Shown piece by piece: positions 16,794 to 16,896 of a stretch of DNA of 64,000 nucleotides. Every line of letters begins with the position of its first letter. Within the stretch, counting starts at the first letter, position 1. The stretch is from Escherichia phage EC.P1: sequence record PQ657772.1. The stretch is one strand, 5' to 3'. Below the pieces are notes generated by a model, which was not told the DNA's origin, did no database searches, and saw only the letters and a program-made list of their open reading frames with translations. A program made the position numbers and the translations under genes.

Positions 16794-16818
16794 GTGTAGT
16801 TCTCCTTATATTCCTTCT

Positions 16819-16847
16819 ATAGTACACCAGTACTGAAAGGGTGTCAA
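16819..16847 (-). promoter_or_regulatory. promoter for small-paralog operon (TTGACA-N17-TACTAT)
   Basis: divergent from the RCC1-array promoter in the same 100-bp intergenic region. Confidence 0.5.
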
Positions 16848-16859
16848 GGGTTTTCTTTA

Positions 16860-16890
16860 GGAGGTAAATATGATATAATGAATAAAGGAG
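16860..16890 (+). promoter_or_regulatory. RCC1-array cassette promoter/RBS (TATAAT at 16874-16879, no recognisable -35, AAGGAGG RBS)
   Basis: conserved module atatagtataatgaataaaggagg(a/g)aaatATG repeated before most array genes. Confidence 0.5.
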
Positions 16891-16896
16891 GGAAAT

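Follow-up and report, generated by a model that had tools for sequence, protein, structure and literature searches.

The 103-bp gap at 16794–16896 of the window, by which we mean the whole 64,000-nucleotide stretch of phage DNA analysed here, is best explained as the seat of two back-to-back divergent promoters that differ in temporal class, an explanation in which, taken as a whole, we place moderate confidence. On the minus strand a host-sigma70-type promoter with an upstream A-rich tract would start transcription near 16812 and express a 22-gene operon as one unit, most likely early and by the unmodified host RNA polymerase. On the plus strand the head copy of a repeated cassette, which precedes the first gene of an RCC1-like array, would have lost its terminator hairpin because no plus-strand gene that needs terminating lies upstream, and would have kept TAAATA-N3-TATAAT and the RBS. 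The TAAATA would be a T4-type late core used by a phage gp55-like sigma factor, a reading that fits the RCC1-like proteins as virion components, and the extended -10 element TGaTATAAT, which only the head copy possesses, may add some sigma70-dependent expression. The two promoters would be kept apart in time by the sigma programme and not by direct interference. Start sites, sigma-factor assignments and timing are our reading of features that are directly visible, namely the sequence elements, their conservation, the homology between cassettes, the missing hairpin and the statistics of TAAATA.

Interpreted in this manner, the junction provides two anchors for a transcription map of Asteriusvirus, the genus to which the phage belongs; several such jumbo phages have been proposed for therapy. 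The first anchor is the conserved host-type promoter of a 22-gene operon adjoining the terminal repeat, and the second is the TAAATA signal, which identifies the diversified RCC1-like genes, whose products are virion-associated, as having promoters of their own and as probably late. The same interpretation corrects the idea that both gene families are under one switch.

The phage shows 97–99% identity to fEgEco12, Ecwhy_1 and WPEC5, jumbo coliphages (myovirus) of the 121Q/PBECO4/phAPEC6 group. Phages of this group carry direct terminal repeats of ~21 kb (PMC13070987). For fEgEco12 the repeat boundary was defined by PhageTerm; it corresponds to 11693/11694 of the window, 300 bp past the end of the operon, and positions 1–11693, a part in which strong minus-strand sigma70-like promoters are dense, probably lie inside this ~21-kb repeat. 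About seven direct repeats of GTAATCA(T) are found on its flanks, within 11590–11880.

A preliminary description had presented the gap as an intergenic divergent region of ~100 bp separating two arrays of paralogs, and in these respects it is borne out. The ORF boundaries place the gap between a minus-strand ATG at 16793 and a plus-strand ATG at 16897. To its left, at 11996–16793 on the minus strand, the ORF list and translations reveal 22 tightly packed genes, comprising 21 small ORFs of 59–75 aa and one ORF of 219 aa, with no intergenic gap longer than 11 nt; phmmer groups 20 of the 21 small ORFs in two clusters (14 and 6 members) and leaves the first gene unlinked in pairwise comparison. 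To its right, at 16897–33490 on the plus strand, lie 13 RCC1-like genes that all start with ATGTTACCTTT, most of them preceded by their own cassette of hairpin, T-run, TAAATA-N3-TATAAT and RBS. Conservation was assessed across 15 Asteriusvirus genomes with 13 distinct gap sequences, in which 49 of the 103 gap columns (48%) are variable. Rfam and tRNA searches found neither known RNA families nor tRNAs. Of two scans of IMG/VR, the protein scan returned no distant homologues of the junction and the DNA pattern scan only 121Q itself and unrelated AT-rich contigs. The literature that we searched contained no paper on the junction or on Asteriusvirus promoters, and no Asteriusvirus transcript data.

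The RCC1-like cassette and the rightward signal

The first gene of the rightward array (16897–18045, plus strand) encodes an RCC1-like protein of 382 aa that matches Pfam RCC1 and RCC1_2 above cut-off as well as phrog_4219 (1.6e-110), and its ortholog in phAPEC6 is gp549. In phAPEC6, 62 virion genes are MS-verified, and the proteome of purified virions includes eight RCC1-like or array proteins, namely gp549, gp551, gp003, gp005, gp006, gp007, gp009 and gp010 (PMC7247149). The plus-strand promoter and RBS that the preliminary description placed before the first gene are indeed there, as the head copy of a recurrent cassette: TAAATAT-NN-TATAATGAATAAAGGAG occurs nine times in the window, every time 5' of an RCC1-like ATG, and the SD sequence AAGGAGGG (16885–16892, plus strand, for the first gene) is common to all cassette copies.

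Internal cassettes run in the order hairpin GCCAGTACT-N-AGTACTGGC, T-run, GATTAAATATAGTATAATGAATAAAGGAGG and ATG, with hairpin folding energies of -10 kcal/mol (z = -3.6) and -13.2 kcal/mol (z = -4.4). The gap shares with the eight internal cassettes the T-run, the TAAATAT..TATAATGAATAAAGGAGG element and the ATGTTACC start, and its plus-strand segment 16848–16860 (GGGTTTTCTTTAG) is homologous to the T-run of the cassette terminator. It differs from them in three respects. The head copy reads TGaTATAAT where the internal copies read TAgTATAAT; the place of their descending hairpin arm is occupied by the TTGACA of the opposite strand; and, unlike the internal copies, it has no stable hairpin, the region 16815–16862 folding at -6.8 kcal/mol with z = +0.71 and thus falling outside the definition of an intrinsic terminator. 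A hairpin or terminator in the gap was accordingly rejected, there being no stable structure on either strand, and a weak ACACC/GGTGT pairing is lost in relatives.

The candidate T4-type late core, TAAATA, occupies 16865–16870 on the plus strand, from which a start near 16877 would follow. TAAATA(T) does not vary among the 15 Asteriusvirus genomes and is equally unchanged in the head copies of two phages from another genus, Munch and fENko-Kae01, and three RCC1 genes whose cassettes have otherwise diverged keep a TAAATA upstream. In the window as a whole the hexamer is avoided about 4-fold (29 sites against 124.6 +/- 10.5 expected in shuffles), with none on the sense strand of the early region 1–26000; 12 of the 29 sites lie 25–30 nt upstream of RCC1 ATGs, and these are the 12 of the 13 genes that have an upstream gap, a tally that does not amount to 12 independent observations, the cassette copies being homologous to one another. 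Such sites as there are stand essentially only in front of genes, which also include three minus-strand ORFs, starting at 42691, 46004 and 47436, with TAAATA ~30–37 nt upstream. This distribution agrees with a late-promoter core under negative selection in other places.

Further indications come from phAPEC6, in which the major head, protease, baseplate and many other structural genes have (T)ATAAATA 20–55 nt upstream and a gp55-like late sigma factor is annotated (gp237c). The late-like element of the window, GGTAAATA, agrees with TATAAATA at 6 of 8 positions, and the head copy of WPEC5 is a perfect TATAAATA. The RCC1 and structural-gene motifs are not identical, since the base before TAAATA is G or T in the former and A in the latter, and the RCC1 TAAATA is always accompanied by a TATAAT-like hexamer 3 nt downstream. 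On account of the conservation of TAAATA, its avoidance elsewhere, the match to structural genes and the virion proteomics, we slightly favour a T4-type late promoter over a sigma70 promoter as the rightward signal. Association of the RCC1-like proteins with the virion means that protein is present at assembly; it is not proof of late-only transcription.

A sigma70 -10 reading of the TATAAT-like hexamer is possible. The head copy carries a perfect extended -10, TGaTATAAT, at 16871–16879 of the plus strand (a start near 16886 if used), and TGnTATAAT is intact in 11 of the 15 genomes; yet neither A4 nor any internal cassette has the TG, JNE01 and Turkey5 carry C in place of the essential final T of TATAAT (TATAAC), and ph0011 reads GATGAT. 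Nor is there a -35 on this side of the gap, where TTTTCT scores 3/6. A sigma70 -35 for the cassette promoter in general was rejected, as the T-run varies in length among the copies and no -35 is fixed; the copy at 18062 alone gives TTGATA-18-TATAGT.

Two promoters and the question of a shared switch

These observations bear directly on the best-surviving alternative, which we nevertheless consider unlikely, namely that two back-to-back sigma70-type promoters launch both families and that the families are coordinated or mutually exclusive through polymerase interference or a shared site. The geometry of the gap lends it some credence: starts at ~16812 on the minus strand and at ~16877 or ~16886 on the plus strand would lie only ~65–75 bp apart, and by geometric inference the upstream contacts of two polymerases could overlap. 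A palindrome, CAGTACTG, is moreover present in the leftward spacer at 16828–16835. Set against this, the core elements do not overlap, the leftward -35 (16842–16847) and TAAATA (16865–16870) being 17 bp apart, and CAGTACTG is the sole palindrome of the gap and is lost in JNE01 and Turkey5, where the leftward hexamers are kept. The gap has neither overlapping cores nor a palindrome conserved across the 15 genomes, and no shared operator was found in it. The proposal of coordinated or mutually exclusive regulation made in the preliminary description thus finds no footing in the gap.

Its related statement, that both families are launched from this one locus, can be retained for the small-paralog operon but not for the RCC1 array. 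An intrinsic-terminator hairpin, GCCAGTACTTGATACTGGC followed by a T-run (18054–18072, plus strand; -10 kcal/mol, z = -3.6), ends the first RCC1 unit, and almost all later RCC1 genes come with a hairpin, T-run, promoter-like element and RBS of their own; for these reasons the head promoter is taken to serve the first RCC1 gene only. Individual terminators and promoters of this kind, like the standing of the RCC1-like proteins as virion components, argue against a joint sigma70-driven launch. With the two sides in early and late classes, as in the explanation that we prefer, the two promoters would simply be used at different times, and mutual exclusivity, if any, would be temporal and exerted via the sigma programme.

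In phage T4, early promoters are of the sigma70 type and late transcription depends on gp55 and the late promoter TATAAATA (cited in PMC5259590). The leftward element resembles the early promoters of T4 and its host in having -35 and -10 hexamers at a spacing of 17 nt, and the rightward element resembles T4 late promoters in having no -35 and in placing TAAATA ~26 nt before the ATG. It departs from the T4 late consensus in that the RCC1 motif, (G/T)TAAATA, matches 6 of 8 positions and is always paired with a TATAAT-like hexamer. Back-to-back divergent promoters are a general class in bacteria, and the gap conforms to it with two outward-facing promoters within ~100 bp, adjacent upstream regions and starts ~65–75 bp apart. 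Unlike members of that class it has no shared operator and no overlapping cores, neither of the two flanking genes is a regulator, and its two sides probably use different sigma factors.

Parallels also exist in the related Rak2-like jumbo phages CBB and GAP32, for which RpoD-like early promoters with UP-like tracts have been predicted, concentrated close to the terminal repeat in early regions made up of short hypothetical genes, together with a predicted ATAAATA late motif before structural genes (PMC5259590). The likeness to our phage extends to both the RpoD-like early promoters near the terminal repeat and the ATAAATA before structural genes, the promoters being predicted in those phages too. 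The published account of CBB and GAP32 does not contain this junction, the RCC1 cassette or the small-paralog operon, and reports no gp33 or gp45 homologues for CBB (PMC5259590). The TGAAACG '-35' class described for CBB (PMC5259590) is absent from the gap. Early and late promoters placed back to back are standard for phages of the T4 superfamily, and the arrangement as such is ordinary phage gene organisation.

The leftward promoter, its operon and the AGTACT motif

The leftward promoter, TTGACA-N17-TACTAT, lies on the minus strand and scores 10/12 in total. Its -35, TTGACA (16842–16847), matches at 6/6 positions and is invariant in 15/15 genomes, and its -10, TACTAT (16819–16824), located 25 nt before the ATG, matches at 4/6 and keeps A2 and T6. 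The 17-nt spacer (16825–16841), which contains CCAGTACTG at 16827–16835, retains its length in 15/15 genomes while 8 of its 17 bases vary. Among the same genomes the -10 takes the forms TACTAT, TACAAT and TAGAAT, positions 3 and 4 of the hexamer alone changing, and in JNE01 and Turkey5 the AGTACT of the spacer is gone with the hexamers and the 17-nt spacing intact. Because hexamers and spacing are held while the spacer bases drift, TTGACA-N17-TACTAT presents the signature expected of a working sigma70-type promoter, and in this the comparison of genomes agrees with the preliminary description, which had assigned it to the operon.

Immediately upstream of the -35, at 16848–16860, the cassette alignment delimits GGGTTTTCTTTAG, the minus strand of which, CTAAAGAAAACCC, is an A-rich UP-like tract; positions 16850–16854 within it are invariant in the 15 genomes, and we infer a UP-element function for the tract. 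Transcription would start near 16812 and yield a 19-nt leader containing the SD sequence AAGGAG (16802–16807, minus strand), 8 nt before the ATG at 16793 of the first small-paralog gene. The block 16800–16806 in this SD region is likewise invariant in the 15 genomes. A putative mini-ORF, AGGAGG-N5-ATG ATA TAA at 16859–16878, was rejected, its AGGAGG being specific to the window and reading ATGGGG in relatives.

Although these features suggest a working promoter, its -10 matches at only 4/6 positions and it lacks the conserved initiation-region motif TTTACATCA of the strong early promoters of the window. It may therefore be weak or belong to another class, for example one served by a phage RpoD-like sigma factor. 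Membership in the early class whose -10 is abutted by AGTACTG was rejected, as the motif is 2–3 nt out of register and TTTACATCA is missing.

The spacer motif nonetheless belongs to a conspicuous population. AGTACT, as at 16829–16834, is by far the most over-represented hexamer of the window, with 253 occurrences against ~22 expected from base composition (~12-fold), and of CCAGTACT the window has 65 copies where shuffles predict 1.6. AGTACT lies in each of the three codon phases as well as outside coding sequence, and its extended consensus is CAGTACTG, the favoured flanking bases being C at -1 and G at +1. In 16 early promoters it directly abuts the -10, nine times it overlaps the first T of the -35, it forms RCC1 terminator stems, and it flanks -35 and late-promoter elements. 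An excess is also evident in phAPEC6, JNE01, EJP2 and Munch, the last of another genus, and no published mention of it was found in the literature searched. We regard this excess as more intriguing than the junction itself.

One may accordingly suppose that the CAGTACTG of the gap is an operator for a phage or host factor reading AGTACT, so that the leftward promoter is tied to a genome-wide regulatory or architectural system. We hold this to be improbable. The sheer number of sites, their spread over codon phases and non-coding DNA, the flank preference, the fixed positions in early promoters and terminator stems and the recurrence in related phages all speak for this supposition. Against it, the motif of the gap is 2–3 nt off the register of the early-promoter class, homology to an arm of the cassette hairpin accounts for it, and JNE01 and Turkey5 have lost it but kept the promoter; furthermore, AGTACT has no known binding protein. 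The more elaborate version, in which a phage factor (a DNA-binding regulator, a nucleoid-type protein or a nicking enzyme) acts on AGTACT to couple the leftward promoter, the cassette terminators and late RCC1 expression, strikes us as equally improbable.

The preferred reading, in which TTGACA-N17-TACTAT drives the operon, draws on the chance expectation and on the surroundings of the gap. In dinucleotide shuffles, sites scoring at least 10/12 occur at 4.0e-4 per bp per strand, corresponding to ~0.03 expected on the minus strand of the gap. Minus-strand sites of this score are enriched in the regions of minus-strand genes, with 25 against 4.8 expected in 1–12000 and 34 against 12.2 in 33501–64000, a clear sign that promoters of this kind are in use in the phage. 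Inside the operon body there is no such enrichment (2 observed, 1.9 expected), one of the internal sites being TTGATA-17-TATCAT (10/12) at 13253–13225. The promoter in the gap is the only plausible driver of the operon because the RCC1 array, read in antisense, takes up the minus-strand DNA upstream of it and the operon offers no non-coding room within itself.

That TTGACA-N17-TACTAT is instead a chance occurrence or the relic of a decayed hairpin, with the operon driven from elsewhere by promoters in coding sequence or by a phage-specific signal, is very improbable: the homology of the segment CCAGTACTG...GGGTTTTCTTT to the cassette, the 4/6 match of the -10, the internal site at 13253–13225 and the lack of enrichment of sites of at least 9/12 in the 12–22 kb region (38 against 49 expected) would be in keeping with it, but they are outweighed by the ~0.03 chance of such a site in the gap, the retention of hexamers, key -10 positions and 17-nt spacing in 15 genomes among 48% variable columns, the absence of other upstream non-coding space beside a flank taken up by the plus-strand RCC1 array, and the recurrence of TTGACA-N17-TACTAT at the head of a second paralog array (36024–35996, minus strand).

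The operon is transcribed towards the adjacent terminal repeat, and its small paralogs have no Pfam match and only match PHROGs of unknown function (phrog_11711 and phrog_29152). It is probably host-takeover material. Phages of the Munch-like genus carry the same GGTAAATATGATATAATGA element at their head RCC1 gene, which is situated ~330 bp away from the terminal-repeat boundary as annotated, and the small-paralog operon is absent between the boundary and this gene (Klebsiella phage fENko-Kae01, 1206–1538; Munch). Judged by this arrangement, the Asteriusvirus operon looks like an insertion or expansion between the terminal repeat and the RCC1 array.

Other promoter arrangements in the window

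The second paralog array (33527–35966, minus strand), which has the TTGACA-N17-TACTAT at 36024–35996 at its head, consists of seven genes of 104–123 aa that belong to phrog_19454.

Five strong promoters in the terminal repeat share a motif (..TARCCCAYMGGGTGC..) ~25–35 nt 3' of them. They are located at 209–181, 2416–2388 and 8557–8529 on the minus strand and at 6847–6875 and 8385–8413 on the plus strand, and two are oriented opposite to the genes around them. The shared transcribed motif may point to a family of small non-coding RNAs; Rfam and the tRNA search gave no hits.

Early promoters in 1–11700 of the window are stereotyped, and consist of an A-rich tract, AGTAC, TTGCAA or TTGACA, N9, AGTACTG or AAAGCG, TATAAT and GTTTTACATC. 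A 5' leader hairpin, GGGGAGAAA..TTCTCCCC, then precedes the RBS, as exemplified on the minus strand at 2294–2267, 7281–7254 and 8898–8871.

In a further arrangement, GGGTTGACTtcgGTCAGCCCtttttGcTATAAT, the promoter is embedded in a terminator, the -35 residing inside the terminator stem and an extended -10 following the T-run. Promoters of this type occur on the minus strand at 2416, 36862, 37445, 42068, 44829, 45610 and 49204.
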